Assembly: GCA_902620425.1 (NCBI GenBank)
Contig: CACNHX010000002.1
Span: 75,127-139,126, forward strand
DNA: 64,000 nt
Source of the DNA: an uncultured Alphaproteobacteria bacterium
GTDB lineage: Bacteria; Pseudomonadota; Alphaproteobacteria; HIMB59; GCA-002718135
Direction of reading: 5' to 3'
Below are positions 11,487-42,232 of the stretch, piece after piece. A model generated the notes under the pieces. The model was not told the DNA's origin, did no database searches, and worked only from the letters and a program-made list of their open reading frames with translations. The position numbers and the translations under genes were made by a program. How positions within the stretch are numbered: the first letter of the stretch is position 1; every line of letters begins with the position of its first letter.

Positions 11487-12524
11487 ATGAGAATCGAAGA
11501 AGAAATTAAACTTGACTACTCAGATGTCCTTTTTAGACCAAAGAGAAGTACTTTAAAAAGTAGGAAAGATGTTGATTTGAATAGAAAATATACTTTTAAA
11601 CACTCAAGATCATCATGGAAAGGAATTCCAATAATAGCCTCTAATATGGATGGTGTTGGTGAAATAGATGTCGCAAAAAAACTAAGTTCTCACAAACTAA
11701 TGACTGCTTTAACAAAACAGCATGACATTAATCAAATAGGAAGTATTTATAAAAAAAATATCTTCTTTGATACAATTGCTCTTAGTTGTGGTACAAGTAA
11801 AGACAGTTACAATAGGTTAAATTCAATTCTAAAAAAATATCCAAAATTTAAATTTATCTGTATTGATGTTGCAAATGGTTATTCAGAAAATTTTAGTAAT
11901 TTTGTTTCAGAAGTAAGAAAAAAATATCCAAAAAAAACTATTATTGCAGGTAATGTTGTTACTGCAGACATGACTCAGGAATTAGTATTAAGTGGAGCGG
12001 ATATTGTTAAAGTTGGTATAGGTCCTGGAAGTGTATGTACCACTAGAATACAAACAGGAGTAGGGTATCCACAACTTAGCGCTGTAATGGAATGTGCTGA
12101 CGCAGCACATGGATTAGGAGCGCATATTATCGCTGACGGAGGATGTACTTGTCCTGGTGATGTTGCAAAAGGATTTGGTGCTGGTGCAGACTTTGTTATG
12201 CTTGGCGGAATGTTAGCAGGTCATAAGGAAGGTGGTGGTGATATAATTGAGGAAAATGGAAGTAAATACATCGAGTTTTATGGATCAAGTTCTGAAGAAG
12301 CAAATGAGAAACATTATGGTGGTCTTGCAAATTATAGATCATCTGAAGGTAAAAAAGTTAAAATACAAATGAAGAATTCGCTAGATAGTACAATTAGAGA
12401 TATTCTTGGGGGTGTACGAAGTAGTTGTACATACGTTGGTGCTTCATCATTGAAGCAGCTTAGTAAGTGTACTACATTTGTAAGAGTAAATAATCAGTAT
12501 AATGACACTTTTGGTAAAGTGTAA
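11487..12524 (+). CDS. guaC: GMP reductase (type 1)
   Basis: [41 protein letters not shown]. Confidence 0.95.
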
Positions 12525-24040: not shown

Positions 24041-26200
24041 ATGGCTAAAAAGAAGAAAAAAATTATTAAAAAGAAAACAATAGTACCCAAAAAGAAAACT
24101 ACTGTTAAAAAAAAATTAACTAAGAAAAAATCAGTTTCTAAATCTTCCAAAGTTTCTAAATTAAAAACTATAAAAAAAACAAAAAAAACTATATCAAAAA
24201 AAGTACCCAAGAAGACATCTATTAAACCTTCTACAAAGGATAAACCAAAAAAAATTCCCAAAGTTATTTCAGGCTTCGAAGAAAAAATTAAAGAAATTTT
24301 TTCAAAGTTAATTAATAAGCATAAAATTGATGGAATATATACCAACAAGATAATTGAAAAAGCAATTCCAAAAAAATTTAGGATTGATGAAAATATAAAA
24401 AAATTTCAGGATCTTATTACTTCTAACAACATTAAAATATACTCAGAAGAAGAAGCAAAAGAATTATTATCTATAGCTAAAGAACAGAGTGAAAAATCTG
24501 AGGATGGTACTGATGAGCAAGAAAAAAAACAAACTGGAAAAACTGATGATCCTGTAAGATTATATTTAAGAGATATGGGTGCTGTTGAATTACTTAGTAG
24601 AGAGGGTGAAATAGCAATTGCTAAAAGAATTGAGGCAGGAAGAGAAAAAATGATTGGAGCTATTTGTGAGAGTCCAATGACAATTAGGTCAATAATTAAT
24701 TGGAAAGATGCAATTAAAGACGGAACTATGCTTTTAAGAGATATTGTAGATCTAGAAGCTACCTATGATATGTCAGATATATCAGATTCAAAACTTGAGG
24801 ATACACTTAAATTAATTGAAAGTGGCGGTGATAACAAAGAAGATGAAAATAAAAAGAAAGAAGATGCAAATAATTCTGAAGATAACAATGGAGAAGAGCA
24901 GACGCAAGAAGATGACGAGGATGATAGTTTAAACGTATCTCTTGCAGCAATGGAGGAAAAACTTAAACCAAAAGTATTAAATGATTTTAATGATATAACA
25001 AAACTATTCAAAAAACTCCAAAAACATAGTCAAGAACTAATAAATACAGATAAAAAAAATGAAAAAAATTATATCTCCTTAGAAAAAAAATATTTAAAAA
25101 TTCAAAAGGAAATGGTTGCGGCCATGAAGGCAGTTCATTTTAACTCCACTACTATTGAAGCATTAATGGAAGCATTATACGAATTAAATAAAAAACTTCT
25201 ATTTCGAGAGGGTAAAATGTTGCGTATGGCAACTAGTGCAGGTGTAAAAAGAGAAGATTTTGTAAATCAATATTTAAGTTTTAATTTTGAAAAAAATTGG
25301 ATCCAAACTTTATTAGCAACAAAAGACAAAAATTGGGAAAAGTTTATTAATAGAAATCATATTGAAATAAATAAAAATATTGAAGAAATTAAGGAAATTC
25401 AAACTGCATCAGAATTACCTTTAACTGAATTTAGAAGAATAGTGGGAACTGTGCAACAAGGTGAAAGGTCAGCTAATAGAGCTAAAAAAGAAATGATCGA
25501 ATCAAATCTTAGATTGGTAATTTCTATTGCAAAAAAATATACCAACAGAGGTCTTCAATTTTTAGATCTTATTCAAGAGGGTAATATTGGCTTAATGAAA
25601 GCTGTAGATAAATTTGAATATCGTAGAGGATATAAATTCTCTACTTATGCAACTTGGTGGATAAGACAAGCTATAACCAGATCTATTGCTGATCAAGCAA
25701 GAACAATAAGAATCCCTGTTCATATGATAGAAACAATTAATAAAATAGTTCGAACAACTAGACAGATTATGTCTGAGATTGGGAGGGAGCCTACTCCAAA
25801 CGAACTAGCTGATAGATTACATATGCCATTAGACAAAGTTAAGAAAGTTCTTAAAATAGCTAAAGAACCTATTAGTTTAGAAACGCCAGTAGGAGATGAA
25901 GAAGATAGCTCTCTTGGAGATTTTATCGAAGATAAAAATGCTCTTATACCTATAGATGCTGCGGTAAAAAGTTCTTTACGAGATACTACAACTAGAATAC
26001 TTTCTTCTTTAACACCTAGAGAAGAAAGAGTATTGAGAATGCGATTTGGTATTGGAATGAATAGTGATCATACCCTAGAAGAAGTTGGTCAACAATTTAG
26101 TGTTACAAGAGAGAGAATTAGGCAAATTGAAGCTAAGGCCCTAAGAAAATTAAAACATCCTACCAGAGCAAGAAAGTTAAAAACATTTCTTGACGAATAA
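24041..26200 (+). CDS. rpoD: RNA polymerase primary sigma factor with Lys-rich N-terminal extension
   Basis: [45 protein letters not shown]. Confidence 0.98.
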
Positions 26201-27027
26201 TGAAGCTAACGCTTCTTGGGACAGGATGTCCATCTATTGATCACAAAAGATGCGGTTCATCTAATCTTGTATCCTCAAAAAAAACCAAAATATTGGTAGA
26301 TTGTGGCTCAGGCGTAACACAAAGATTACACCAAAGTGGAAATTCTTCTGCTGAGATTGATGCGTTGTTACTTACACATCTTCATACAGATCATGTTATA
26401 GATTTATATCAACTAATTATTTCCTCTTGGCATTCAGATAGAGATTCAATTTGGAATATATATGGACCAAAAGGTACAAAAAAATTTATAGATAAAATTT
26501 TTTTAGCTTGGAGAGAAGAGCGTGAACTAAGAATTAATTATGAAAAGAGAAAATCTATAAAAGGTCTCAAATATAAAGTTTATGAGTTCAATAATGAAGG
26601 TAATATAAAAATTAATGATATAAAAATTAAATATTTTGAAGTAGATCATAAACCCGTTCCTTTTGCCTATGGCTTTTCTTTTTTTAATAATAAAAAAAAA
26701 TTAACAATTAGTGGTGACACAAAACCATGTGAGAGCTTAATGGTTAATGCTCAAAATGCAGATGTTCTTTTGCATGAAGTTTTTATTGAATATGAAATGA
26801 ATAAGACTTCAAAACTTAGAACTAAAAAAACTTTACATAATGTTAAGGAATATCATACTCCAAGTAATTTAGTTGGTAAGGTTGCAAAATTATCTAATTG
26901 TAAAAAACTTGTGTTAACGCATTTTGTTCCAACAAGATTCAATATTTCAAAACTTAAAAAAATAGTTAAAAAAGATTTTGGAAAGGATCCAATAATTGGA
27001 GAAGATTTATTAACTATTAAAATTTAA
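26200..27027 (+). CDS. MBL-fold metallo-hydrolase (RNase Z/AtsA-like)
   Basis: LLGTG.P, VDCG.G, THLHTDH (HxHxDH), SGDT, YHT, LTHF. Confidence 0.82.
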   Translation: MKLTLLGTGCPSIDHKRCGSSNLVSSKKTKILVDCGSGVTQRLHQSGNSSAEIDALLLTHLHTDHVIDLYQLIISSWHSDRDSIWNIYGPKGTKKFIDKIFLAWREERELRINYEKRKSIKGLKYKVYEFNNEGNIKINDIKIKYFEVDHKPVPFAYGFSFFNNKKKLTISGDTKPCESLMVNAQNADVLLHEVFIEYEMNKTSKLRTKKTLHNVKEYHTPSNLVGKVAKLSNCKKLVLTHFVPTRFNISKLKKIVKKDFGKDPIIGEDLLTIKI

Positions 27028-27851
27028 TTGATTTTATTCAATAATTTTTCAAATTCATCATCTTTAATTTCAACAATATTTGAGGATGTTGGAAATTTTT
27101 TAGTTTTAACGTCATCTATAAAGTTTTTCAAACCTTCTACAGTGTCATCTATAAGTTTTTCATAAGACTTATTCGTATCCTTAAATACTTTTGCATGTCG
27201 TGGTACTCGACCAGTATTAGTTCCAATTACATCTTGTATAAATAAAAACTCAACATCACAATTTGGACCACTTCCCATTGATAAAGTTAAAAGATTTACT
27301 TTTTTTGTAATTAATTCTGCTACCCGATCAGGAACACATTCTACCTCAAGACCAATAGCTCCCGCATTGTCATATGCAATAGCATCTTGATAAACTCTAA
27401 ATGCTGAGTCAGCATCTTTTCCTACGGCTTTAAAACCTCCGGTCCAAGTACTCTTATAGGGAATTAAACCAATATGACTTACAGATGGTAAACCTTCTTT
27501 ACGAAGAGCTTCAATATATTTTGGACTATTTCCACAATAAACTGCATCTGCTCCATTGTCTCTTGCAATTAATGCAGCATCAATTGCCTTATCAATAGAT
27601 GAAAGTTGACCAAGGCCAAATATCATAAAAGTATTAGGAGCAGCTTCTCTAATATCTTTTATATGAGCATCTCTGAACCATTTATTTGTTGGTACACCGG
27701 TTCTTAATGTTTCTTTTTTAAAAGATACAATTTGGATATCTATGCCAGCTTTTTCTGCAGCATAAGCTTCTAAAGAATTCGTTACATATAGCTCAGTTAA
27801 TTTTACTTTTCCTTTTTTCTCAAATAAATCTTTAACAGTTAATTTAGTCAT
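27024..27851 (-). CDS. Divergent ketopantoate hydroxymethyltransferase (PanB)-like protein
   Basis: HIGL.P, GGFKAVGK, EVECVP, GSG..D..F.F..DV.G resemble PanB, but the GDS, DLPF and KIEG motifs are absent. Confidence 0.7.
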   Translation of the reverse strand: MTKLTVKDLFEKKGKVKLTELYVTNSLEAYAAEKAGIDIQIVSFKKETLRTGVPTNKWFRDAHIKDIREAAPNTFMIFGLGQLSSIDKAIDAALIARDNGADAVYCGNSPKYIEALRKEGLPSVSHIGLIPYKSTWTGGFKAVGKDADSAFRVYQDAIAYDNAGAIGLEVECVPDRVAELITKKVNLLTLSMGSGPNCDVEFLFIQDVIGTNTGRVPRHAKVFKDTNKSYEKLIDDTVEGLKNFIDDVKTKKFPTSSNIVEIKDDEFEKLLNKIN

Positions 27852-29215
27852 TAATTATATTGAGGTAAATAATCACCATGTGCTTCAATCATTTTATCGG
27901 TCATGTTATAAATTTCATCAATTGTCAGATTAGCTCCTGTTAAAGGATCTAGCATTGCAGCATGGTATATATGCTCTCTTTTTTTTGTTAGAGCAGCTTC
28001 TGCAGTTAGTATTTGCACATTAATATTAGTGCGCATTAAAGCAGCTAATTGCTCTGGTAATTTACCAAATTTTTGAGGTTTATAACCTTTTGAATTAATT
28101 ATTACAGGAACCTCTACACAGCAATTTTCTGGTAAATTATCAATTAAATTGTCATTCATAACATTAGCATTGATAGTAACTTCTTTATTATTTGCAATTC
28201 CATCCATTATAAATGATGCATACTCATTACTTCTTTTAAGAGGCATATCATAAATTGGAGTCATATCTTTTTCCAAATCTTTCCAAAGTTTAATGTTGCT
28301 TTTGCATCTATCGATATACTCTTCTATTGGTATCTTGTATTTTTTTATGACGTCATCTCTATTTTGTTTTATGAACCATGGAACATATTCAGCAAAATGC
28401 TCACTAGATTCTGTTACAAAATAACCAAATCTTCTAAGAATTTCATATCGTACTTTTTCATGAAGTACTTTATTAGATTCGTGATCAGTTTTTTTACTTC
28501 TTGAGGATATTTCTTCATCATTTACAATTTTATCAGCTAGTTTTTTTAATCTTGGATATAAATCTTCGTTTTCATTTTCATTAATTTTCTTTTCAAATTT
28601 TTTATAGAAGGCCATATGGTTTATACCGCCACAAAGATAATCAATATTATTAATATCTTCATCTAAATCTTTTGCCAACATTTCTGCGGTTCCTTGAACG
28701 GAGTGACATAGACCCATAGCTTTTATTTCTGGGAAAGCAGTATTTATTGCAATCATGTTTGAACACATTGGATTTACGTATTGCAACCAAGTAGCATTAG
28801 AACAAATATCCATAATATCTTTTGCGATATCTAGTAAAACAGGAATAGTTCGTAGACCTCTCATTATTCCACCTATGCCGAGAGTATCTGCTATAGTTTG
28901 TCTTAACCCAAACTCATTTGGAATTTTAAAATCAATAACTGTGGATGGCTCATATCCCCCTACTTGAATTGTTGTTTGAACAAAGTCTGCACCAACTAAA
29001 GATTCTCGTCTGTCAGTATGGGAAGTAACTTTAGGTGAAACATTTAATTTTTTTGAAATTACATCTATTAAATCATGTGATGCTTTTAATCTTACAGGAT
29101 CAATATCTTGTAATGCAATCTCCATATTTTTAAATTGCTGAATAGCTAAAAGATCGGTTACTATTCTTCTTGTAAAAACAGCACTACCTGCGCCAATTAT
29201 AGTGAGTTTAATCAT
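27851..29215 (-). CDS. melA: GH4 NAD+-dependent alpha-galactosidase (MelA-like)
   Basis: IGAGS, QTIADTLGIGG, YVNPM, GLCHSV, GINHM, FGYFVTESSEHFAEYVPWF. Confidence 0.88.
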   Translation of the reverse strand: MIKLTIIGAGSAVFTRRIVTDLLAIQQFKNMEIALQDIDPVRLKASHDLIDVISKKLNVSPKVTSHTDRRESLVGADFVQTTIQVGGYEPSTVIDFKIPNEFGLRQTIADTLGIGGIMRGLRTIPVLLDIAKDIMDICSNATWLQYVNPMCSNMIAINTAFPEIKAMGLCHSVQGTAEMLAKDLDEDINNIDYLCGGINHMAFYKKFEKKINENENEDLYPRLKKLADKIVNDEEISSRSKKTDHESNKVLHEKVRYEILRRFGYFVTESSEHFAEYVPWFIKQNRDDVIKKYKIPIEEYIDRCKSNIKLWKDLEKDMTPIYDMPLKRSNEYASFIMDGIANNKEVTINANVMNDNLIDNLPENCCVEVPVIINSKGYKPQKFGKLPEQLAALMRTNINVQILTAEAALTKKREHIYHAAMLDPLTGANLTIDEIYNMTDKMIEAHGDYLPQYN

Positions 29216-29948
29216 TTTGATACTCCATGATTGAATTATGAGGTGCCACTTTTAAAGGAGTATACCTTGCGTGTCCAATTTCTTTATATGGATTATTTGT
29301 TTTAGTATTAAAGCATACTATTAAAGTTCTTCTTGAGTAGTTTGAATTATTTGCCTCTGATGAATGTAAAAGATTTGCATGAAAAAAAAGAGCATCTCCT
29401 GGATCGGCTTCAACATAAATACATTCATGTCTTTTTTCTAATTCACGTATTCTATCTAAATCTGCAGTTTGTTCAGGAGTATCAGATACACCATGACCTA
29501 TTCTTCCAACTTTTTGAGATCCTTTTAAAACTTTAAGACAGCCATTTTCTTTTGTAGCCTTATCTAACATTATAAAACAAGATCCCATATCTGGATATAG
29601 ACATGCATTATGATACCAATAACCATAATCCTGATGCCAATCAAAACCACCATCACCTGGCTTCTTCCAAATTACTTTTGAATGATAGTGGTAAACTTCA
29701 TCTTCCAGGAATTCTTCCATTGGTTTTACAATTCTTTCGTTAGTAGAAAATTTCCCAAATAAATCATTTGAGGGTTCATTCCATAATGTAATATTTAATT
29801 TACCCGTAGAACTAAACGTTTCTCTAGCTTGATTTTCTTTCTCAGAATTTCTTTCAATAAATTCAATTAATTTAAATATCTCATCTTCTGAAAAGAGTTT
29901 TCTTTTAAGAATGTATCCATTATTTCTGAAATCTGTGTAATCTGACAT
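29208..29948 (-). CDS. PhyH-family Fe(II)/2OG dioxygenase (L-proline 4-hydroxylase-like)
   Basis: WHQDYGYWY (H105, D107), ENGCL, LLHSS (H195), RR; overlaps melA start. Confidence 0.8.
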   Translation of the reverse strand: MSDYTDFRNNGYILKRKLFSEDEIFKLIEFIERNSEKENQARETFSSTGKLNITLWNEPSNDLFGKFSTNERIVKPMEEFLEDEVYHYHSKVIWKKPGDGGFDWHQDYGYWYHNACLYPDMGSCFIMLDKATKENGCLKVLKGSQKVGRIGHGVSDTPEQTADLDRIRELEKRHECIYVEADPGDALFFHANLLHSSEANNSNYSRRTLIVCFNTKTNNPYKEIGHARYTPLKVAPHNSIMEYQND

Positions 29949-30014
29949 ATTAATTTCATGTTAAAAATAAATAATAATATTGTCAAATAATTTAAGGTGT
30001 TTAAGAATAATCTT

Positions 30015-31478
30015 ATGAAAGTATCATTTCTTGGTGCAGGTAGTGTTGGCTTCACCCAAACCCTTGTTAGAGATATATTAAAAGTTAAAAAACTTCAAAA
30101 TATAGAAATTTCTTTACACGATATATCTAGAAATAATTTGTTAATGGTAGCAGAGTTAATTCAAAAAGATATTAAAGCTAATAATCTTCCAACAAAACTT
30201 AGTATTGATCCAATTAGAAAAGAATCAATAAGAAATGCAAAATATATCATTAGTTGTGTTAGAGTTGGAGGTTTAGAAGCATTTGAAACTGATATATCTA
30301 TTCCTTTAAAATATGGGATCGATCAATGTGTTGGAGATACAATTTGTGCTGGTGGCATAATGTATGGACAACGAAACATTCCAGTTATTTTAGATTTTTG
30401 TAAAGATATAAAAAAATATGCAAAAAAAAATGCTCTTTTCTTAAATTATGCAAATCCTATGGCTATGAATACCTGGGCGGCAAATGAAATTGGTAAAGTT
30501 AATACAATTGGTTTGTGTCACGGTGTTCAAGGTGGAGCAAAATTAATTGAAGATTCATTAAACATTCCATTTGGAAAAATGAAATATTCTTGCAGCGGTA
30601 TAAATCACATGACTTGGTATTTGGATTTAAATTATAAGGGTAAAAAAATTACAAAAGACCAGCTTTCTAAATCGTTAAAGAAACATAAAAAATTTTCAAG
30701 AGATGAAAAAGTTAGAATAGATGTTTTAGATAAATTTGGATATTTTTCTACAGAAAGTAACGGTCATTTAAGTGAATATTTACCATGGTATAGACGTACA
30801 CAAAAAGATGTGAAGAAATGGAGTAGTCTTTCAAACTGGATACATGGCGAAACAGGTGGTTACTTAAGAGTATGTAATGAAAAAAGAAATTGGTTTGTTG
30901 AGGATTATCCAAAATATTTAAAAAATTCTGGAATTAAGCTTAAAGATTACAAAAGATCAACTGAACACGGAAGTTATATAATTGAAGCAATTGAAACTGG
31001 AAAAAAATATAGAGGGCATTTTAATGTTATTAATAAAAAAACAATTTTTAATTTAGATGATGATTGCGTAATTGAGAGTACAGGATACGTAGATTCAAAA
31101 GGTATAAAAATGATTGATGGAATAACCTTACCGCTGCAATGTGCTTCTCTGTGCAGTACCTCAATAGATGTCCAAAGAATGGCTGTAAAGGCAGCAATAA
31201 AAGGAGATATTGAATTATTAAAACTTGCTGTACTGCAAGATCCACTAGTAAGCTCAGTATGTTCATCTGAGGAAGTTTGGCAAATGGTAGATGAAATGCT
31301 TGTTGCACAAGCACAATGGCTGCCACAATATCAATCAAAAATTAATAGTATTAAAAAGAATCTAAAAAAAATAAAAAATTATAAATATAATAAATCAATT
31401 AAAGGGCTGACCAAAAAAACAAAGCGTAATCAACAAAAAAGGTCAATTTTAGTTGAAAAGGAAGCATTTAATTTATAA
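30015..31478 (+). CDS. Second GH4 alpha-glucosidase/alpha-galactosidase
   Basis: Start at MKVSFLGAGS; DQCVGDT, NYANPM, GLCHGV, GINHMTW, STESNGHLSEYLPWY. Confidence 0.87.
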   Translation: MKVSFLGAGSVGFTQTLVRDILKVKKLQNIEISLHDISRNNLLMVAELIQKDIKANNLPTKLSIDPIRKESIRNAKYIISCVRVGGLEAFETDISIPLKYGIDQCVGDTICAGGIMYGQRNIPVILDFCKDIKKYAKKNALFLNYANPMAMNTWAANEIGKVNTIGLCHGVQGGAKLIEDSLNIPFGKMKYSCSGINHMTWYLDLNYKGKKITKDQLSKSLKKHKKFSRDEKVRIDVLDKFGYFSTESNGHLSEYLPWYRRTQKDVKKWSSLSNWIHGETGGYLRVCNEKRNWFVEDYPKYLKNSGIKLKDYKRSTEHGSYIIEAIETGKKYRGHFNVINKKTIFNLDDDCVIESTGYVDSKGIKMIDGITLPLQCASLCSTSIDVQRMAVKAAIKGDIELLKLAVLQDPLVSSVCSSEEVWQMVDEMLVAQAQWLPQYQSKINSIKKNLKKIKNYKYNKSIKGLTKKTKRNQQKRSILVEKEAFNL

Positions 31479-31559: not shown

Positions 31560-33611
31560 ATGAAAAAAAATAAATTTAGATCCACATTACTTGCTAGCGT
31601 AGCATCAGCTACTTTTGCATTAACCAGTACAAATGCGTCTGCTAGACCGGAAGGTGCAATAGCACTTCCATCAGCACCTGCAATTGAAAATATGCAAGAA
31701 GTTCAGTTCATTGGAAGAGATGAATTGATGAGCTATCAAGATATTGGAGACTTTGAATTTCTTTATGAACCAGAATACATTAGTGCTCTAGTTCAAGAAG
31801 GTAAACTACCACCGATTTGGGAACGATTACCAAAAAGACCTTTAGTTTTTAATGGAGATGCAATGCCTGATGGTATTGGTCGTTATGGAGGAACTTTTAG
31901 ACATACAATTGGTGGAAGACCTGAAGGATGGAACTGGACTGCTTCACAACATCAAGGATGGGGTGGAATTAATTACACAGTTCAAGAATGCCTAACAAGA
32001 AACGGTCCAATGGTAAGATTAAAAGCTGAAGACTCTTATCCTTTACCAAACTTAGCTACTGATTGGGAATGGGATGGAAATAAACTTACTATGAATCTTA
32101 TTGAAGGAGCAAAGTGGTCAGATGGAGATCCATTTGATGCAGAAGATGTTCGTTTTTGGTGGGAAGATAACGTTTTAGATGAGAACGTTCCAACAAGAAT
32201 GAATGCAACCACAATGGGAGAAGGGACTTCTTTGGAAGTACTTAGTCCAACCCAGATTAGATGGACATTCCCACAAGAAGAACCTAAATTAGTTCTTCAC
32301 TCCATGGCATATATAAATGGATGCCCTGGACCATCACATTTACTTAAAGAACATCACCCTAAATATGGTGGTACGTCTTATGATGATTATGTTCAAGCAT
32401 TTCCTGCTGGACGTTTACCATGGGTTAGCATGGGTGCATGGACTGCTGTTGAATATAAACAAGACGAGGTAGTAATACTTCGCAGAAATCCATACTATTG
32501 GAAAGTTGATAGTAAAGGACAACAACTTCCGTATATGAACGAGATGGTGTTCCAGTTAAAAACTTGGGGCCAAAGAACAGTTGATACCTTAGCTGGTAAC
32601 GCTGACTTCTCGAATATGGAGAACGTACCTTTATACTTAGAAGCTGTTAAAGAGTCTAAGAGTGATGATGCACAAGCTCAACTATCTTTTAGTGGAAGAA
32701 CCATGGGATATCAACTCGCCATGAACCAAGCAATTGGGTTAGGTGTATTGGATGATCAAATGGCAGCTATTCGAGATCTAAATAGAAATTTAGAATTCAG
32801 AAAAGCTGTTAAGCATGCAATTGATGGTAAAGCATTTGCAAAAGCAATGTCCAAAGGACCATTTGTGACAGTTTATGCAGGCGGTCTTGCTAGAGATAGT
32901 GCTTTCTTTGATGCAGATGCTACTTCATTTTTCCCTTATAATCCAGCAGGTGCAAATTCTATACTTGATGGATTAGGTCTTATAGATACTGATGGTAACG
33001 GAATTCGAAACCTTCCAAATGGAGGTGGAGATCTAGTTATTAATTTAGTTCAAAATAAAGGCAGTGATAATGAAATGTTGATTGGCGATGGAATGGCAAC
33101 TATGATGGCTGAAGTTGGTATTAAAATTAATATTAAACCAATGGAAGATACTGAGCCAACAAGACAAGCAGGTGAATGGGATTGGTTACTTGTAAGATCT
33201 CAACAAGAAATGGCCTTCCCTAATTCGGGTTATTGGTCAGATATGGGTCCTGTAACTACGTCTTCATTTGATCCTCACTTAGGAACTGATGAACACCCTC
33301 AACAACTTCAACCATTTGAGAAAGAAATCGTAAGTATTCTTGAAGAGTGGAGAGATGGTGTTGAAGGTGCAGAGGCTCAAGCATTAATGTCTCGCTATCA
33401 GAAACTATTTACAGAAAATGTTTATATGCCTGGTATAGTTCAATATCCAACAGCACTTTTGATAAACAAAAGAATTCAAAACTTAGCTGATGGAATGCCT
33501 GTTTTGGCTTATCAATGGGCTGAAGATACAGTTATCCGTGAACAATTCTGGGTTTATCAATATGATCAATTAGATGAACTTTTCCCTGGAAGAGTTCCTG
33601 GTATTGATTAA
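31560..33611 (+). CDS. Family 5 ABC substrate-binding protein, AgpA-like (probable alpha-galactoside binding)
   Basis: Signal peptide; GKLPP..ERLP, YGGT, WSDG.PF.A.DV, RNPYYWKVD.KG.QLPY; GGAGG SD; adjacent to GH4 genes. Confidence 0.8.
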   Translation: MKKNKFRSTLLASVASATFALTSTNASARPEGAIALPSAPAIENMQEVQFIGRDELMSYQDIGDFEFLYEPEYISALVQEGKLPPIWERLPKRPLVFNGDAMPDGIGRYGGTFRHTIGGRPEGWNWTASQHQGWGGINYTVQECLTRNGPMVRLKAEDSYPLPNLATDWEWDGNKLTMNLIEGAKWSDGDPFDAEDVRFWWEDNVLDENVPTRMNATTMGEGTSLEVLSPTQIRWTFPQEEPKLVLHSMAYINGCPGPSHLLKEHHPKYGGTSYDDYVQAFPAGRLPWVSMGAWTAVEYKQDEVVILRRNPYYWKVDSKGQQLPYMNEMVFQLKTWGQRTVDTLAGNADFSNMENVPLYLEAVKESKSDDAQAQLSFSGRTMGYQLAMNQAIGLGVLDDQMAAIRDLNRNLEFRKAVKHAIDGKAFAKAMSKGPFVTVYAGGLARDSAFFDADATSFFPYNPAGANSILDGLGLIDTDGNGIRNLPNGGGDLVINLVQNKGSDNEMLIGDGMATMMAEVGIKINIKPMEDTEPTRQAGEWDWLLVRSQQEMAFPNSGYWSDMGPVTTSSFDPHLGTDEHPQQLQPFEKEIVSILEEWRDGVEGAEAQALMSRYQKLFTENVYMPGIVQYPTALLINKRIQNLADGMPVLAYQWAEDTVIREQFWVYQYDQLDELFPGRVPGID

Positions 33612-33621
33612 TAAATTTTTT

Positions 33622-33652
33622 AGTAAGGGGCTATTTAAGCCCCTTACTTTTT
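33622..33652 (+). terminator. GC-rich hairpin plus T-tract after SBP gene
   Basis: AGTAAGGGGCT-ATTTA-AGCCCCTTACT-TTTT. Confidence 0.8.
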
Positions 33653-33660
33653 AAAAAAAA

Positions 33661-34659
33661 ATGCTTTCATTTATATTCAGAAGAATTCTTTATTCAATTC
33701 CATTACTGTTCGTAATCAGTATTATAATTTTTTTTATTATTGAATTACCGCCTGGTGACTATGCAACATGGTATGTTAGTCAAACTAAAGCTTTAGCAAA
33801 TATCACACAAGAACAAGCTTTAGAACTAACAATAATGTTGAGAGAAAAATACGGCCTTAATGAACCATTAGTAATAAGATATTTCAATTGGATTAAAAAT
33901 ATTGTTTTAAATTTCGATTTTGGTTTTTCCATGCATTACAACAAACCTGTCAGTGAAATGTTAGGTGATAGATTACCTCGAACTCTAGTAATAGCATTAA
34001 TTTGTCATTTTTTTGCTACAACTATAGGTGTTTTTATAGGAATTTATGCTGCAAAAAATCAAAATAAGTTAGGTGATAATGTAGCTACTATCTTCGCTTT
34101 TTTAGGAATGACCATTCCACGTTTCTTTCTAGCATTACTAATAATGTATTGGTTAGCAATTGTTCTAAATTCAGACAACACTGGATCAATGTATTCTCCA
34201 TACTACGCTGTTCAACCAATGTCTTTTGCAAAACTATGGAATGGCATACTTCATATTTGGCCAATATTTGTCATCGCTATAATCGGAGGTCTTGCCTACA
34301 ATATGAGAGTTATGCGCGGAAATTTATTAGATGTAATGCGTATGCAATATATTGAAACAGCAAGAGCAAAAGGTTTGTCTGAAAATCAAACATTGTACCG
34401 TCATGCAGTACCAAATGCTTTGCATCCCCTTGTAATGTTTCAGGGTATTGCTTTACCATATATGCTAATGGGAGAACTAGAAGCTGCGATCGTTTTATCT
34501 ATTCCAACTGCAGGACCACTTTTAGTAGAATCTATTCAAAGACAAGACACTTATACTACTGCAGCAATTTTATTTTGCTTAACAGTAATATTAATTATAG
34601 GAAATATAATTGCTGATATTTTGCTAGCAATTTTAGATCCTCGAGTAAGACAGAATTAA
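33661..34659 (+). CDS. ABC permease (OppB/DppB type)
   Basis: LPPGD, YIETARAKGL EAA loop, AD.LLA.LDPRVR. Confidence 0.9.
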   Translation: MLSFIFRRILYSIPLLFVISIIIFFIIELPPGDYATWYVSQTKALANITQEQALELTIMLREKYGLNEPLVIRYFNWIKNIVLNFDFGFSMHYNKPVSEMLGDRLPRTLVIALICHFFATTIGVFIGIYAAKNQNKLGDNVATIFAFLGMTIPRFFLALLIMYWLAIVLNSDNTGSMYSPYYAVQPMSFAKLWNGILHIWPIFVIAIIGGLAYNMRVMRGNLLDVMRMQYIETARAKGLSENQTLYRHAVPNALHPLVMFQGIALPYMLMGELEAAIVLSIPTAGPLLVESIQRQDTYTTAAILFCLTVILIIGNIIADILLAILDPRVRQN

Positions 34660-34664
34660 ATATT

Positions 34665-35768
34665 ATGGAAACAACTTCAAACTTACAAAATTCATATTTT
34701 TCACTAGTAAGAAAAAGATTTTTGAAAAACAGAGTTGGAATATTAGGCTTAATTTTTGTAGGCTTTCTAATTTTCTCTGCTGTTTTTGCAGATTTTTTAT
34801 CTCCATATGATCCAGCAGCAAGAGATAGTGATAGAGTTTTTTATCCTCCTCAGGGAATACATTTCTTTGATGAGGATAATAATTTTTCGTTAAGACCTTT
34901 TGCTTATGGTTTTACTGAAGGATTTGATCCTGACACATATCTTCCAATAATGGAGATTGATTATACTCAAAAAAACTATCTTTATTTTTTTACTAGAGGA
35001 TGGGAATATAAGTTTCTAGGCTTAAATTTGGACTTACATTTATTTACTACTAAAGACGGGTCTAAAGTATTTTTTATTGGATCAGACGCCTATGGAAGGG
35101 ATATGTTATCAAGAATTTTTAAGGGAAGTAGGGTAACGCTATTATTCGCTCTGATAGTTGTAAGTATAACAACTTTCATTGGTATTTTAGTTGGAATTAG
35201 CTCAGGTTATTTTTCAGGAAAATTTGATATAGCTTCACAAAGAGTTACGGAACTTGCTTTAGCTTTTCCAGATCTACCTTTGTATTTATCCTTGGTAGCA
35301 ATTCTGCCAAGGCAAATGGATCCATTTCTGATTTTTATCTTTATGGCATTTATTTTATCCTCTTTACGGTGGGCTCAACTATCAAGAGAGGTTCGGGGAA
35401 AAACCCTTTCTTTAAGAAGATTAGACTATATTAAAGCAGCTGAAGCTTTAGGCTCCAATGATCTAAGAATTATATATAGACATCTACTTCCCAATGTAAC
35501 AAGTCACGTTATAGTAAGTGTTTCTTTATTGATACCTTCTGTAATTTTGACAGAAAGTTTTTTTAGCTTTTTAGGTTTAGGCATTCAATCTCCATTTGTT
35601 AGTTGGGGTCTTCAATTAAATTCTGCTCAAGATATGCGAACAATTGGAAGTTATCCATGGGTTTTAAGTCCTGTTTTTGCAATCTTAATTTCAGTTTTAG
35701 GATTTAATGCTCTTGGTGATGCTTTACGCGATGCAATTGATCCATATGCAACAACAACAAAAAAATAA
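34665..35768 (+). CDS. ABC permease (OppC/DppC type)
   Basis: GSDAYGRD.LSR, YIKAAEALG, SFLGLG, LGDALRDA.DP. Confidence 0.9.
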   Translation: METTSNLQNSYFSLVRKRFLKNRVGILGLIFVGFLIFSAVFADFLSPYDPAARDSDRVFYPPQGIHFFDEDNNFSLRPFAYGFTEGFDPDTYLPIMEIDYTQKNYLYFFTRGWEYKFLGLNLDLHLFTTKDGSKVFFIGSDAYGRDMLSRIFKGSRVTLLFALIVVSITTFIGILVGISSGYFSGKFDIASQRVTELALAFPDLPLYLSLVAILPRQMDPFLIFIFMAFILSSLRWAQLSREVRGKTLSLRRLDYIKAAEALGSNDLRIIYRHLLPNVTSHVIVSVSLLIPSVILTESFFSFLGLGIQSPFVSWGLQLNSAQDMRTIGSYPWVLSPVFAILISVLGFNALGDALRDAIDPYATTTKK

Positions 35769-37390
35769 TGACTAATCTTGTTGAAATTGAAAATCTTCAA
35801 GTAAAGTTTAATACAGATAGTGGTAAAGTAAATGCAGTGAATGGCATATCCTTTAATATTAAAAAGGGTGAAACATTAGCACTAGTAGGAGAGAGTGGGT
35901 CTGGTAAATCTGTTACTGCTAGAGGAATTATTCGATTACTTGCAGAAAATGCAATTATATCTGATCAAACATCAATAAAGTTTAATGGTACAAATATAAA
36001 TTCTTATTCTGAAAAAGAGTATCAAAATATTAGAGGAAAAAATATTTCAATGATTTTTCAAGAACCAATGAGTTCTTTAAATCCAATATATACAATTGAA
36101 AACCAAATTAGTGAGGTTTTAAAAATTCATGGAAAATTTTCAGATAAAGAACTCAAAGAAAAATGTCTTGAATTACTAAAACAAGTTCAAATTCCAGAAC
36201 CAGAGTCTAGATTATCACAGTATCCACATCAATTGTCAGGAGGACAAAGACAAAGAATTATGATTGCTATCGCCATAGCTAATAATCCAGATTTACTTAT
36301 TGCAGATGAGCCAACTACTGCTCTTGATGTTACAGTTCAAACAGAGATACTTAAATTACTTCAAAGTCTTCAACAAAAATATCAAATGTCCATTTTATTT
36401 ATTACTCATGATCTGACTATTGTCAGACAAATAAGTGATAGAGTTTGTGTAATGTATAATGGAAAAATTAAAGAAACAGGCATTACAAAAGAAATTTTTG
36501 AAAATCCAAAAGATGATTATACAAAACATTTATTGTCATCAGAGCCAGAAGAAAGAGATTTACATTATGATAAAAATGGAAGAAGCATCCTTTCAGGAGA
36601 AAATCTTAATGTAACATTTAATACTAAAGTAAAAGTATCAGGTAGAAATAAAGTTTTATCAATTAACGCTGTAAATAATATCAGTCTCGATCTTAAAGAA
36701 GGTGAGACTCTTGGAATTGTTGGCGAAAGTGGATCTGGTAAAACTACTTTAGGTCAAACTTTATTAAGGTTAGTTGATAGAGAATCTAACACAGATGTAG
36801 AAGGTGAAATTAAGTTTTTTGATGATCGAATTGACCGTTTATCTCGAAAGCAATTTAAGCCATTTAGAAATCAAATGCAGATAGTTTTTCAAGATCCATA
36901 TGCATCTTTAAATCCACGATTGTCTGTTAAACAAATTATAGAAGAGGGATTAATTGTAGCACTTAATATGAAAGATAAAAACGAACGGCTAAATAAAATT
37001 GAAAACATAATGAGTGAAGTTGGTTTAGAACCTAGCTCCATGCTTAGATTTCCTCATGAGTTTTCTGGAGGCCAAAGACAAAGAATAGCTATAGCAAGAT
37101 CATTTGTCTTAAATCCAAAATTTGTCTTATTGGATGAGCCAACATCAGCTCTTGATTTATCTATTCAAAAACAAATTCTAGAACTATTACTTCAACTCCA
37201 AAAAAATCACAAAACTACTTATATTTTTATCAGTCATGATTTAAGAGTTATTAGATCAATAAGCCACAATTTAATCGTTATGAAAGATGGTTCGATTCTA
37301 GAACAAGGTGTGGCAAAAAATATATTAACCAACCCTCAGAATGATTATACAAAGAATTTAATAAAATCTGCTTTTGATATTATTTATTAA
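35768..37390 (+). CDS. Double-domain ABC ATPase (OppD-OppF fused type)
   Basis: Two Walker A motifs (GESGSGKS, GESGSGKT), two SGGQRQR, two DEPT motifs. Confidence 0.93.
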   Translation: MTNLVEIENLQVKFNTDSGKVNAVNGISFNIKKGETLALVGESGSGKSVTARGIIRLLAENAIISDQTSIKFNGTNINSYSEKEYQNIRGKNISMIFQEPMSSLNPIYTIENQISEVLKIHGKFSDKELKEKCLELLKQVQIPEPESRLSQYPHQLSGGQRQRIMIAIAIANNPDLLIADEPTTALDVTVQTEILKLLQSLQQKYQMSILFITHDLTIVRQISDRVCVMYNGKIKETGITKEIFENPKDDYTKHLLSSEPEERDLHYDKNGRSILSGENLNVTFNTKVKVSGRNKVLSINAVNNISLDLKEGETLGIVGESGSGKTTLGQTLLRLVDRESNTDVEGEIKFFDDRIDRLSRKQFKPFRNQMQIVFQDPYASLNPRLSVKQIIEEGLIVALNMKDKNERLNKIENIMSEVGLEPSSMLRFPHEFSGGQRQRIAIARSFVLNPKFVLLDEPTSALDLSIQKQILELLLQLQKNHKTTYIFISHDLRVIRSISHNLIVMKDGSILEQGVAKNILTNPQNDYTKNLIKSAFDIIY

Positions 37391-38916
37391 TGAGGAAATT
37401 AAAAAACGTAACTATCCTAGGCGCAGGCACCGCCGGTTGGATTTCTGCATATATTCTAAGTGATTTTTTTTACACAAATAAACAAAATGTAAAAGTAACA
37501 ATTGTTGATCCTTCAAGCATTCCTATAATTGGTGTTGGAGAAGGAACAACCGGAATATTTTATGATTTTTTAAAAAGATATAATTTAGATGAACTAGACT
37601 TTTTAAGAGAAACAAAAGCTACTCTAAAGTTTGGGATTGTTCATAAAGACTGGAAAGAATTAAATCATCAATATTATGGACCAATTGATGACCCACATTT
37701 GTTAGCATCTAAAAAAGACCCTGAAGATTTTGAATATTTAAATGTTTATGCAGTTGCTGCAGGTCGATCTGTTGCTGATGTGCATTTACACACAAAACTA
37801 ATGGAAACAAATAAAGTTCCTTTCAATCTTGAAAATAGCAGACCCGATTTAAAAAGCCCTTTTTTCTATGCTTATCATTTTGATAATCATCTTGTTGGAA
37901 ATTATTTAAGAAAAAGATCAAAAAATATAGAGATTCTTGATGAAGTCTATACGCATGCTTCATTAAATGAAAATGGAGAAATTGAAAAACTTCATTTTGA
38001 AAGTGGTAAAGAAATTGAAACTGATTTAGTTCTTGATTGTACAGGCTTCAGAAAACTCCTCATAAATAAATTATATAATGTTGGATGGAAATCTTATCAA
38101 AAAAATTTACCAGTAAATAGAGCTATGCCTTTCTTTTTAAAATTAGATGAAAAAAATATTAGTAATTATACTTTAGCTTGGGCACAAAAAAATGGTTGGA
38201 TGTGGCAAATACCAACTCAAGAAAGAATTGGTGCTGGTTATGTATATTGTGATAATTTTACAAGTCCAGAAGAAGCTAAGATTGAAATAGAGAAAGTCTT
38301 AGGTCATGAAATAGAACCAAGAAACGATATTAAATTTACTTCGGGTAGAATAGAAAAATCATGGGTAAAAAATTGTATTGCCATAGGATTAGCTTCTGGC
38401 TTTCTTGAGCCATTAGAAGCCACTTCAATTCATAGCACTCTAATACAAATGATTTTGTTTGCAACTGATTACCTCAAAGAAGAAATGGATTTTAATAATG
38501 AAAAAATAATGGATGAGTTTAATGATAGAGTTGGACGTCAGTTTGATGATTTTATGATCTTTCTTAATACTCATTATGTGTCCAATAGAGATGATAGTGA
38601 TTTTTGGAAATATGTTAAAAATGAATGTATTCACGAAGACACTTTGAACCTCATTAATAAATGGAAAAATCAATTACCTAGGATGAGTGATTTTGAATTA
38701 TATCTTTCAGGCCTTCCTCATGTTCAATCACAACTTTATTATCCTGTTTTAGATGGCCTAGGTTTACTCCAAAAAGATGTTGCAAGGGAAGAAATGAATA
38801 ATTTTAATTTAAAGCCCTTTGCAAGAGATGAATATAAAAGATTTAATGATCAGTATGATGATCAAATGAAAAGATTCATAAAGCACAATGATTATTTAGA
38901 ATATGCATCACTTTGA
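37390..38916 (+). CDS. Flavin-dependent (tryptophan) halogenase family protein
   Basis: GAGTAG, IGVGEGT, ATLK(80)FGI catalytic Lys, WMWQIP, FLEPLEATSI. Confidence 0.85.
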   Translation: MRKLKNVTILGAGTAGWISAYILSDFFYTNKQNVKVTIVDPSSIPIIGVGEGTTGIFYDFLKRYNLDELDFLRETKATLKFGIVHKDWKELNHQYYGPIDDPHLLASKKDPEDFEYLNVYAVAAGRSVADVHLHTKLMETNKVPFNLENSRPDLKSPFFYAYHFDNHLVGNYLRKRSKNIEILDEVYTHASLNENGEIEKLHFESGKEIETDLVLDCTGFRKLLINKLYNVGWKSYQKNLPVNRAMPFFLKLDEKNISNYTLAWAQKNGWMWQIPTQERIGAGYVYCDNFTSPEEAKIEIEKVLGHEIEPRNDIKFTSGRIEKSWVKNCIAIGLASGFLEPLEATSIHSTLIQMILFATDYLKEEMDFNNEKIMDEFNDRVGRQFDDFMIFLNTHYVSNRDDSDFWKYVKNECIHEDTLNLINKWKNQLPRMSDFELYLSGLPHVQSQLYYPVLDGLGLLQKDVAREEMNNFNLKPFARDEYKRFNDQYDDQMKRFIKHNDYLEYASL

Positions 38917-40201: not shown

Positions 40202-41266
40202 ATGGCATTAATTTCACTAAGACAACTTTTGGATCACGCTGCAGAGAATAATTACGGTGTACCAGCATTTAATGTAAATAACCTGGAAGCGATTAGGGCT
40301 ATAATGGAAGGGGCTAAAGAGTTAAATAGCCCAGTTATTTTGCAAGCTTCTGGAGCAGCAAGAAAATACGCTGGCCCCATTTTTGTTAAAAAATTAGTAG
40401 AAGCCGCAATGGACGAATTTTCAGACATTCCAACTGTTTTACATCAAGATCATGGTGGATCTCCATCAGATTGCAAAAATTGTATCGAACTTGGATTTAC
40501 TTCTGTCATGATGGATGGCTCCTTAATGGATGACCAAAAAACACCTTCAGACTTTGATTATAACGTTAGAGTTACCAAAGAAACAACTGATATGGCGCAT
40601 GCCTTAGGTGTTTCCGTTGAAGGAGAAATTGGATGCTTAGGTTCTTTGGAAACTGGAACTGGGGAAAAAGAAGATGGTGTTGGTGCAGAAGGCAAACTTG
40701 ATCATGATCAACTTTTAACAGATCCAGATGAGGCATCAGATTTTGTTAAGGCAACTAATGTAGATGCATTAGCTATTGCTATTGGAACGAGTCATGGAGC
40801 TTATAAATTTTCTCGACCACCTACAGGTGATATTTTAGCAATTGATAGAATTAAAGAAATACATTCAAGACTTCCAAATACTCATTTAGTAATGCATGGA
40901 TCATCTTCTGTTCCTCAAGATTTAATAAAAACTATTAACGAATATGGTGGAAAAATAAAGGAAACATACGGTGTACCTGTGCCTGAAATCCAAGAAGGAA
41001 TTAAACATGGTGTTAGAAAGGTAAATGTTGATACAGACTTAAGACTGGCAGCTACAGCTGCAGTAAGAAAATATTTTCATGAAAATCCCTCTCAATTTGA
41101 TCCCCGAAAATATTTATTACTTTCAAAAGATGCTATGAAAGAAGTTGTAAAAAGTAGACTTCAAGAATTTGGAACTGCAGGAAATGCTTCATCTATAAAC
41201 TCAATTTCTTTAGGTGAAATGTCAAAAAAATATAAATCTGGTGAGTTTAAAGCTATTATAAATTAG
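40202..41266 (+). CDS. fba: Fructose-bisphosphate aldolase class II
   Basis: [48 protein letters not shown]. Confidence 0.95.
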
Positions 41267-41311
41267 CTTTTAATTATTGAAAAAAATTATTTTTTAATCC
41301 AAAATATAAAT

Positions 41312-42139
41312 ATGAAAAAAGTTTCACAGCTTGATGAATACTTATTTGATTTAAATGGATATTTAATAATTGAAAATGCTTTAAGTAGAAAAGAATTAAA
41401 AGATCTTAATAATATTCTAGATAAATTAAAAAGTTTAAAACATAAAGAATGGGCAGGCTATGTTCATGGACACAATTATGGTGGCAAGGAAGGTTTAAAT
41501 CTTCAACAAATTTATGAAGCTGGAAAACCCTTTGAAAAATTAATTGATCATCCTTCATGGATAAATCATATGCTTCATTTTGTTGGAGGAAAAGATACAT
41601 TTGATCAACATCATGGACCATTATTTATCGATGAAAATTTTGCGAATATTAGAGGGCAGGGAGAAGCTATTGGAATTCATTCTGGTGCTCACGAAGGAAC
41701 TCAAAGAGGTCATTATAGATTTGAAAATGGAAAATTTCACTGCGGACAAATTAATATTTTGCTAGCTCTAAATGATATAGGCCCAGGTGATGGTGGTACA
41801 GTCATTATTCCTTCATCACATAAATCAAATTTACGTCATCCAGAGTTTGATAAACATGTTATGAAAAAGGGCAAAGTTACATCAGCTGATAATATGACAG
41901 CTTCAAAAGAAATTTATTTAAAAGCTGGAGACGGACTATTATTTGTAGATTCACTTTGTCATGGTTCTGCAAAAAGAACAAATAAAGGAGAAAGAAGAAT
42001 TGTTGTTTACAGATATGGGCCTTCTTGGGGTTTTTTTAGACACCCTTATCGACCTTCAAAAAAACTACTTTCAAATCTCACTGAATTTCAAAAAAAAATA
42101 GTAATGCCTCACGAGCAAGTGCTTTCACCAAATAACTAA
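41312..42139 (+). CDS. PhyH-family Fe(II)/2OG enzyme with H-S-G in place of H-x-D
   Basis: FDLNGYL, GIHSG (H123-S-G125), DGGT..IP.SHKSN, AGD.LLF..SL.HG (H217), RR. Confidence 0.78.
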   Translation: MKKVSQLDEYLFDLNGYLIIENALSRKELKDLNNILDKLKSLKHKEWAGYVHGHNYGGKEGLNLQQIYEAGKPFEKLIDHPSWINHMLHFVGGKDTFDQHHGPLFIDENFANIRGQGEAIGIHSGAHEGTQRGHYRFENGKFHCGQINILLALNDIGPGDGGTVIIPSSHKSNLRHPEFDKHVMKKGKVTSADNMTASKEIYLKAGDGLLFVDSLCHGSAKRTNKGERRIVVYRYGPSWGFFRHPYRPSKKLLSNLTEFQKKIVMPHEQVLSPNN

Positions 42140-42232
42140 AAAAACAAGATTATTTAATAGTTAAATACATTTTTTTTATCTTGATTTTTCGATCAATTTA
42201 ACTTTTAAAAGATATATTAAAGGGAGGAATAG

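Follow-up and report, generated by a model that had tools for sequence, protein, structure and literature searches.

What does a protein do that keeps the fold of PanB (ketopantoate hydroxymethyltransferase), has lost the metal site of that enzyme, and is encoded in a sugar operon? We asked this of a gene in the window, by which we mean the whole 64,000-nucleotide stretch of DNA analysed (G000:C2:75127-139126, where G000 is the window's genome). The genome is a 1.54-Mb, ~28% GC, 91%-complete assembly assigned to SAR11 (Pelagibacteraceae). The gene, 27024..27851 on the minus strand, is intact, starts with ATG, is the last of its operon, and encodes a protein of 275 amino acids (aa), P0001. The original prediction, made from the sequence, was that P0001 is PanB-like, lacks the Mg2+ and keto-acid ligands, and is therefore unlikely to be a normal pantothenate enzyme. 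We found that P0001 belongs to a large, uncharacterised sister family of PanB that is associated with oxygenases and is labelled PanB in databases. By sequence, the family appears to be a functionally new form of the PanB fold that is widespread and wrongly annotated; its biochemical role is putative. We consider the chances about even that the gene encodes a working enzyme of this family that transfers one-carbon (C1) units to folate, unlike a pantothenate enzyme.

P0001 has the length and the triosephosphate isomerase (TIM)-barrel fold of PanB (EC 2.1.2.11; E. coli b0134, 1M3U; also 1OY0, 1O66/1O68, 3VAV and 3EZ4), with 22-25% sequence identity. It matches the Pfam family PF02548 (Pantoate_transf) end to end (130.6 bits; cut-off 28.7). 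It misses the equivalog level of both NCBIfam models, reaching about half the cut-off of TIGR00222 panB (105.9 bits; cut-off 207.55) and 113.6 bits against NF001452 (cut-off 272). An AlphaFold model of P0001, built from 46 sequences (pLDDT 93.5), was compared with the PDB by Foldseek. The top matches were all PanB structures (E about 1e-16 to 1e-19, TM about 0.7), followed by other members of the phosphoenolpyruvate (PEP)-mutase/isocitrate-lyase superfamily. Nothing in the PDB was closer than PanB, and the ESM Atlas gave only clusters auto-named PanB.

The residues that bind metal and substrate in PanB are missing. We mapped P0001 in three ways: a MAFFT alignment with E. coli PanB (from NC_000913), a wider MAFFT alignment of the family, and a profile of the subfamily matched by HMMER to PDB 1M3U (E. 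coli PanB; E 2e-43). All three, and likewise the Pfam and NCBIfam matches, agreed with the manual alignment of the original prediction, in which GDS, DLPF and KIEG of E. coli PanB are replaced by IVSF, IFGL and YCGN. At the level of sequence, the Mg2+ ligands D45, D84 and E114 align to S44, G79 and a deletion, and S46 and K112, which bind the carboxylate of the 2-oxo acid, are replaced by F45 and Y105. That is, VSF stands for GDS and F-G-L for A-D-L, and the position of E114 falls in a 2-3 residue deletion after strand beta4 ('AVYC-GN' versus 'MVKIEGG'). Throughout the subfamily, the stretch that follows strand beta2 (~20 residues, the GDSLG loop among them) is deleted or rewritten. Mapping by sequence and secondary structure gave no equivalent acidic ligands at the D45, D84 and E114 positions. 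The same ligands are lost in all 72 non-redundant members of the clade described below. Six charged residues are strictly conserved in all true ketopantoate hydroxymethyltransferases: D46 (D45 here), D84, K112, E114, H136 and E181 (PMC13488298). P0001 keeps two of the six, and the other four are gone.

The two that are kept, as the original prediction had noted, are H126 (in HIGL) and E171 (in ECVP). They correspond to E. coli H136 and E181; both are invariant in canonical PanBs and in the divergent clade. They belong to a set of conserved residues on strands beta5-beta8, with D199 and D207 (E. coli D209 and D217), and the two groups of proteins also have G138, P141, G203 and G205 (E. coli numbering) in common. 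In a 35-row alignment, G100, H126, G128, G164, E171, G193, G195, D199, D207, P217 and H219 are invariant, and D102, E169, S191 and R218 are conserved in more than 90% of rows. Several positions distinguish the clade from canonical PanBs: Y105 (for K112; Y in 79% of the clade), W136, E169 (for V179), S191, F204 and R218-H219 (for K-F). Judging from strand positions in the model, most of the conserved polar residues would be found at, or a short way from, the C-terminal ends of strands beta4-beta8, the active-site side of the barrel. The ratio of nonsynonymous to synonymous substitution (dN/dS) between the P0001 gene and seven SAR11 orthologs was 0.05-0.15, indicating strong purifying selection. 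On these values we rejected a decaying pseudogene.

The divergent proteins form a single group. An exhaustive HMMER homolog search gave 3188 cluster representatives, 67 of them at E <1e-30. In a quick IQ-TREE phylogeny of 89 non-redundant rows, the divergent forms made up one clade of 72 rows (SH-aLRT support 99, or 100 with two basal intermediates included); P0001 was sister to L030 (support 99). Six sequences outside the clade (P0137, P0165, P0211, P0241, P0236 and P0239) lie between it and the canonical PanBs and have lost only some of the ligands; some of these intermediates lack D45/D84 yet have K112 and E/Q114 and no deletion. Their sequences suggest that the keto-acid site was lost stepwise. 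The clade has a signature of its own: x-[IV]-Y followed by the 2-3 residue deletion (in place of VKIEGG), E-x-E-[VC]-[VI]-P, S-[ML]-G-[SA]-G and P-R-H-A. P0001 matches it with AVYC, EVECVP, SMGSG and PRHAK. Members come from SAR11, Rhizobium, Sinorhizobium, Neorhizobium, Bradyrhizobium, Rhodobacterales, SAR324, Woeseiaceae, Caldilineaceae (Chloroflexota), Trueperaceae, Verrucomicrobiota and Acidimicrobiia (Actinomycetota). Scores of the subfamily profile in 40 relatives of the window's genome were bimodal, at 209-364 bits for the subfamily versus 89-124 bits for canonical PanB, with nothing between. Copies of the subfamily, one to four per genome, accompany canonical PanB in 37 of 40 SAR11-order genomes. 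We searched the literature on PanB-like proteins, on PanB with demethylases, Rieske proteins or formaldehyde, and on pinitol and mocD, and found no account of the family; one paper (PMC3082293) bears on the clade.

The cell has its own PanB. Four PF02548 genes are present in the genome, one canonical and three divergent (the P0001 gene and two on contig 1). The canonical panB (G000:C6:28394-29134; 253 bits) keeps GDS, D84 and K-I-E. The gene for pantoate-beta-alanine ligase, panC (PF02569), was not found in the assembly, which is 91% complete. As 37 of 40 relatives have it, the pantothenate pathway is normal in this group, and the panC of the window's genome probably lies in the unassembled part. 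The setting of PanB is with panC, whereas the P0001 gene is in a sugar/oxygenase operon.

A relative of P0001 has been tested for PanB function by complementation, a check that the original prediction had proposed. Villasenor et al. (2011, BMC Microbiol 11:66; PMC3082293) described a 'second panB', RHE_PE00443, on plasmid p42e of Rhizobium etli CFN42; it keeps 5 of the 12 active-site residues, and no metal site could be detected in it. An R. etli strain mutated in panB cannot grow without added pantothenate although RHE_PE00443 is present, and constitutive expression of RHE_PE00443 did not complement the mutation (data not shown in that paper). The protein was tested for PanB function only, and no other role was proposed (PMC3082293). 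We found a single PF02548 gene on p42e, at 488817-489632. It has all the motifs of the clade (AVYC, EIEVVP, SMGAG, CDAQYLF and PRHAK), and the genes immediately before it encode a fatty-acid-desaturase-family protein, a 'MocE family' ferredoxin and a flavin adenine dinucleotide (FAD) oxidoreductase. By sequence, then, RHE_PE00443 is a member of the same clade as P0001, and it is the only member for which we found published experimental data. The two proteins are ~40% identical, share the motifs, and are both encoded behind an oxygenase module. They differ in their partners: RHE_PE00443 is with a MocDEF-like di-iron system under a LacI regulator, and P0001 is with a PhyH-family oxygenase and a family 4 glycosidase (GH4).

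Genes of the clade tend, in phylum after phylum, to be next to oxygenase genes. We analysed neighbours at 32 non-redundant loci with a tblastn panel, and with a forced-gene caller followed by a Pfam tally. In the unbiased tally of 118 neighbours within two genes, the leading families were FA_desaturase (11), PhyH (8), Rieske (7) and FA_hydroxylase (5). By tblastn, an oxygenase (PhyH or membrane di-iron) was within 3.5 kb at 20 of the 32 loci. The density of oxygenase genes was 0.159 per kb within 3.5 kb, compared to 0.020 per kb at 6-10 kb.

The operon in the window fits this pattern. Its first gene (29208..29948, minus strand) encodes a PhyH-family Fe(II)/2-oxoglutarate dioxygenase (PF05721, 113.6 bits), and an HxD motif in a WHQD stretch and the distal His are visible in the translation. 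The solved relatives nearest to it are small-molecule hydroxylases (7DT0/7DZZ, GriE 5NCH and EctD). The middle gene (27851..29215, minus strand) encodes a nicotinamide adenine dinucleotide (NAD+)-dependent GH4 glycosidase of the alpha-galactosidase type, with Glyco_hydro_4 and Glyco_hydro_4C domains and 585 bits against the NCBIfam alpha-galactosidase model NF011657 (cut-off 486). The PhyH gene overlaps the start of the GH4 gene by 8 nucleotides, and the GH4 stop overlaps the start of the PanB-like gene in TAATG. With starts and stops overlapping at both junctions, the three genes are a coupled operon and are co-transcribed.

A second operon, apparently for uptake, is transcribed divergently on the plus strand. 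It begins with another GH4-family gene (29997..31478; Glyco_hydro_4 142 bits, Glyco_hydro_4C 150 bits) and continues with an ATP-binding cassette (ABC) importer (31560..37390) made up of a family-5 solute-binding protein, two permeases and a fused double ATPase (SBP_bac_5, two BPD_transp_1 and two ABC_tran domains). This importer probably takes up the substrate of the island. The last gene (37390..38916; PF04820, 334.8 bits) encodes a Trp_halogenase-family flavoenzyme, mentioned here as context only.

Related loci vary on the same theme. GH4 is directly upstream of P0001 orthologs in nearly all SAR11 loci that reach far enough upstream (L010-L026 and L029); the exception, L028, is an 83%-identical copy in the order solute-binding protein, permeases, PanB-like, PhyH. 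In SAR11 variants that lack the operon PhyH (the L015 type), a PhyH gene is found in a divergent operon with an SBP1-type ABC system and a class-II aldolase. All three PanB-like paralogs of the window's genome adjoin oxygenases. The other two are outside the window, are 37-45% identical to P0001, and are each in an oxygenase-rich sugar cluster of their own. The one at G000:C1:109490-110065 (L004:1423-2247:-) is in a cluster with a sugar ABC importer, in the order PhyH, PanB-like, solute-binding protein, permeases; next to these are genes of the FA_desaturase, GFO/IDH/MocA, ThuA and sulfatase families. The one at G000:C1:357047-357556 (L003:1426-2253:-) has the order FA_desaturase, reductase, Rieske, PanB-like, FA_desaturase, FA_hydroxylase, SMP-30 lactonase, IlvD/Edd dehydratase.

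Operons of the Rhodobacterales type have the order FA_desaturase, Rieske, PanB-like, X, GFO, GFO. The letter X stands for a widespread family of ~360 aa (764 hits) that is annotated 'hypothetical' and for which we found no Pfam or NCBIfam model. It is standalone after the PanB-like gene at L106:8001-9089 and L107:8001-9089, and fused to the PanB-like domain as the C-terminal 379 aa of P0274 (L104:8808-9944:+). A structural model of X has a galactose-mutarotase-like fold (pLDDT 85; Foldseek matches 3NRE, 3DCD and 3Q1N).

The rhizobial loci resemble a known catabolic system. The Rhizobium/Sinorhizobium module consists of a LacI or MocR regulator, a fatty-acid-desaturase-family protein, a 'MocE family' ferredoxin, an FAD reductase and the PanB-like protein. 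In R. lentis it adjoins MocR-, MocA- and MocB-like genes. An O-demethylase role for mocDEF is said to have been described by Bahar et al. in 1998. The catabolic locus for rhizopine (3-O-methyl-scyllo-inosamine) comprises mocDEF, mocR and mocBA, and mocDEF is required for catabolism (PMC10107442); the R. lentis layout matches that locus. MocDEF has the same three parts (membrane oxygenase, Rieske ferredoxin and FAD reductase) as the commonest partner of the clade. This is a likeness between types of neighbour and not homology to the PanB-like proteins, and the oxygenase in the window is instead a soluble PhyH-family Fe(II)/2-oxoglutarate enzyme. In the searchable literature we found no mention of a PanB-like gene in moc loci.

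At five rhizobial loci (L068, L072, L073, L083 and L084), the gene directly after the PanB-like gene encodes PurU, and the order in R. bangladeshense is PanB-like, PurU, FolD. Among FolD, GcvT and PurU homologs sought near all 80 loci, the rhizobial PurU and FolD genes were the only cases. The R. bangladeshense FolD homolog (L083:11719-12492:+) has an in-frame stop at 11902-11904 and may be a pseudogene, or the stop may be a sequencing error. In R. lentis (PLSDB table), there is an unannotated gap of ~1 kb at the corresponding position.

Based on these neighbours and on the residues that are kept, we think it about as probable as its opposite that the PanB-like protein passes to tetrahydrofolate (THF) a formaldehyde or hydroxymethyl unit that the oxygenase generates when it demethylates a methylated sugar. 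The island would import a methylated alpha-galactoside or its sugar or cyclitol part, and GH4 would cleave the glycoside. The oxygenase would then hydroxylate a methyl group, in the simplest case that of an O-methyl ether, to give a hemiacetal that releases formaldehyde. The PanB-like protein would carry out the folate half of PanB chemistry, joining free formaldehyde or the hydroxymethyl intermediate to THF to make 5,10-methylene-THF, which FolD and formate-THF ligase would oxidise for energy. The cell would harvest the methyl carbon and, having little capacity to detoxify formaldehyde, would be spared exposure to it. We infer the folate step because the protein is homologous to an enzyme that uses 5,10-methylene-THF, because the beta5-beta8 half-site is kept and the keto-acid half is lost or variable, and because PurU and FolD are among the neighbours. 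Methyl hydroxylation by the oxygenases is proposed by analogy with MocDEF.

The only known chemistry of PanB uses 5,10-methylene-THF, and we know of no enzyme for the condensation of formaldehyde with THF. That condensation is treated as spontaneous (PMC7073904, PMC3160333); the uncatalysed reaction is very slow, too slow for flux (PMC7073904). SAR11 bacteria oxidise C1 units through THF, and some strains are without the formaldehyde-activating enzyme and glutathione-linked detoxification (PMC3160333). The window's genome encodes FolD, Fhs and 10 GcvT-domain proteins. A folate role fits this physiology and the slowness of the uncatalysed reaction. It would also be analogous in function to Fae (which uses tetrahydromethanopterin), Gfa (glutathione) and the GcvT domains of DmdA, DMGDH and sarcosine oxidase. 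Each of these catalyses or channels the transfer to a carrier of C1 units that arise, at the level of formaldehyde, in demethylation, and the PanB-like protein would do the same with THF. The analogy is functional only, as none of them is related to the PanB-like protein in sequence or fold.

A broader proposal can be made, and we offer it tentatively, as something we would sooner doubt than accept. The clade as a whole might supply the enzyme, so far missing, for condensing THF with formaldehyde or with a hydroxymethyl intermediate bound to the oxygenase: a 'folate Fae' derived from PanB by loss of the keto-acid half-site. Together with a PhyH or MocDEF-type oxygenase it would make a two-part, O2-dependent demethylase that feeds the methyl groups of sugars and cyclitols into the folate C1 pool in SAR11 and in rhizobia, rhizopine loci included.

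Several observations weigh against a role in transfer to folate. Folate binding by the clade may be argued from two things, homology to PanB and the PurU/FolD adjacency in rhizobia. To our knowledge, no complex of PanB with folate exists from which the folate site could be mapped. E171 (E. coli E181) is thought to be the base that acts on the keto acid in PanB, and its retention is not specifically a signature of folate use. PurU/FolD adjacency is limited to a few related rhizobial loci and falls outside the top 25 neighbour families. At 12 of the 32 loci, no recognised oxygenase was found within 3.5 kb. These loci have mixed neighbours (for example, M20 peptidase, alkylsulfatase-like metallo-beta-lactamase, radical SAM enzymes, PhoX and aldo-keto reductase), among which we found no second common theme. 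The operon PhyH has as its nearest solved relatives enzymes that hydroxylate C-H bonds of amino acids and ectoine, and these are not known to be O-demethylases. That one streamlined genome has three diverged paralogs, with a separate cluster for each, points to substrate or partner specificity over a generic catcher of formaldehyde. The mutarotase-like fusion and neighbour hint, from the model of X, that the PanB-like protein may itself handle a sugar. Lastly, the SAR11 strain HTCC1062, which may or may not carry the gene, oxidises free formaldehyde only slowly (PMC3160333).

Because of the cluster-specific paralogs, the mutarotase-like fusion and the rarity of PurU/FolD adjacency, we kept two other enzymatic roles under consideration. 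The stronger is that of a carbohydrate enzyme independent of folate, with the PanB barrel acting as an aldolase or retro-aldolase, isomerase or epimerase, or dehydratase on the hydroxylated or oxidised sugar or cyclitol that the neighbouring oxygenase and GFO/IDH/MocA dehydrogenases produce. The genes are always found in clusters for sugars or cyclitols, together with ABC importers of the sugar type, GFO/IDH/MocA dehydrogenases, lactonase and IlvD/Edd dehydratase. A sugar-binding, galactose-mutarotase-like domain is fused to the PanB-like domain or directly follows it; the existence of three cluster-specific paralogs and the variable N-terminal half suggest substrate specificity; and the superfamily of PanB (PEP-mutase/isocitrate-lyase) is rich in C-C lyases. 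However, the Mg2+ site of all characterised lyases of the superfamily is gone and a replacement set of ligands is not evident. The one partner common to clusters that otherwise differ is the oxygenase rather than a dehydratase or dehydrogenase, and the minimal rhizobial module is just oxygenase, ferredoxin, reductase and PanB-like protein, with or without PurU. In addition, the residues retained are those in common with the folate enzyme. Overall we think such a role unlikely, though well worth keeping in view. A general role as a 2-keto-3-deoxy-acid aldolase was considered separately and rejected: most modules are without a dehydratase, and the metal site is absent.

It is also possible, and in our view improbable, that the protein runs the PanB reaction in reverse on a ketone derived from a sugar. 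Here a C-methyl group (of a C-methyl cyclitol, or a branched or deoxy sugar) would be hydroxylated, a dehydrogenase would make the adjacent ketone, and THF-dependent retro-aldol cleavage of the hydroxymethyl group would yield 5,10-methylene-THF. This is the smallest change from the reversible reaction of PanB. It retains the proposed acid/base residues H126 and E171, and it accounts jointly for the substrate-specific paralogs, the GFO/IDH/MocA neighbours and the link to PurU/FolD. However, the rhizobial context corresponds to the moc locus, and the substrate known for that locus has an O-methyl rather than a C-methyl group; many minimal modules are without a dehydrogenase; and neither a metal nor a Lys that could stabilise the enolate is conserved.

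A pseudoenzyme, that is, a catalytically dead PanB fold serving as a scaffold, chaperone or regulator of the oxygenase, is very improbable. The loss of four charged active-site residues and the tight operon coupling with oxygenases would be consistent with one. In contrast, the formation of a single clade, the residues specifically conserved in it and the low dN/dS speak against a pseudogene, and on the same grounds a pseudoenzyme is unlikely. Seven residues conserved across the clade (H126, E169, E171, D199, D207, R218 and H219), with Y105 in most members, are predicted to be on the catalytic face of the barrel, and one to four copies persist in streamlined genomes. There is next to no chance that P0001 is a true ketopantoate hydroxymethyltransferase whose active site is unusual, as the PF02548 match and the database annotation (3-methyl-2-oxobutanoate hydroxymethyltransferase) might imply, and the original doubt on this point has held: D45, D84, K112 and E114 are missing, both NCBIfam cut-offs are missed, a canonical panB is present, the operon is a sugar operon unlike a pan operon, and RHE_PE00443 fails to complement the R. 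etli panB mutant (PMC3082293).

Of the functions originally suggested in place of pantothenate synthesis, then, a hydroxymethyl or formaldehyde transferase best fits the context (oxygenases, with PurU and FolD in rhizobia), a repurposed aldolase is a live rival, and a pseudoenzyme is disfavoured. In databases, genes of this clade are named PanB and given a Gene Ontology term for pantothenate synthesis in hundreds of entries, among them ~240 plasmid records of Rhizobium and Sinorhizobium and those of most SAR11 genomes. This annotation is very probably wrong and inflates pathway predictions. The SAR11 copies beside oxygenases in sugar-uptake islands suggest that methylated sugars or cyclitols in marine dissolved organic matter are consumed and their methyl carbon oxidised via folate. 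If transfer to folate is correct, a natural catalyst for joining formaldehyde to THF would be of interest to C1 biochemists and to engineers of synthetic methylotrophy. The same module is present in cultured rhizobia that have genetic tools, and the idea is therefore cheap to test.

Some homologs have unusual architectures. P0124 (542 aa; 39% identical to P0001) is a tandem duplication of the PanB-like domain in one polypeptide. P0232 is a fusion of canonical PanB with PanE. P0275, a UxuA-like protein with a partial PanB-like domain, is known from a single contig of 2 kb and is possibly an artefact.

Two other features of the window recur in related genomes. A second sugar module at 40202-43486 (plus strand) encodes a class-II aldolase (F_bP_aldolase), a 275-aa PhyH-family oxygenase and an SBP_bac_1 binding protein. 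In SAR11 genomes of the L015 type, a homologue of this module is directly opposite the GH4/PanB-like pair, in the place of the family-5 ABC system. On the other side, an RNase Z-like gene of the metallo-beta-lactamase fold (26200-27027, plus strand) is coupled to rpoD and convergent with the PanB-like gene, and the 3' ends of the two genes overlap by 4 nucleotides. Its position, as an open reading frame of 275 aa after the PanB-like gene, is kept in all the orthologous SAR11 loci that we inspected.

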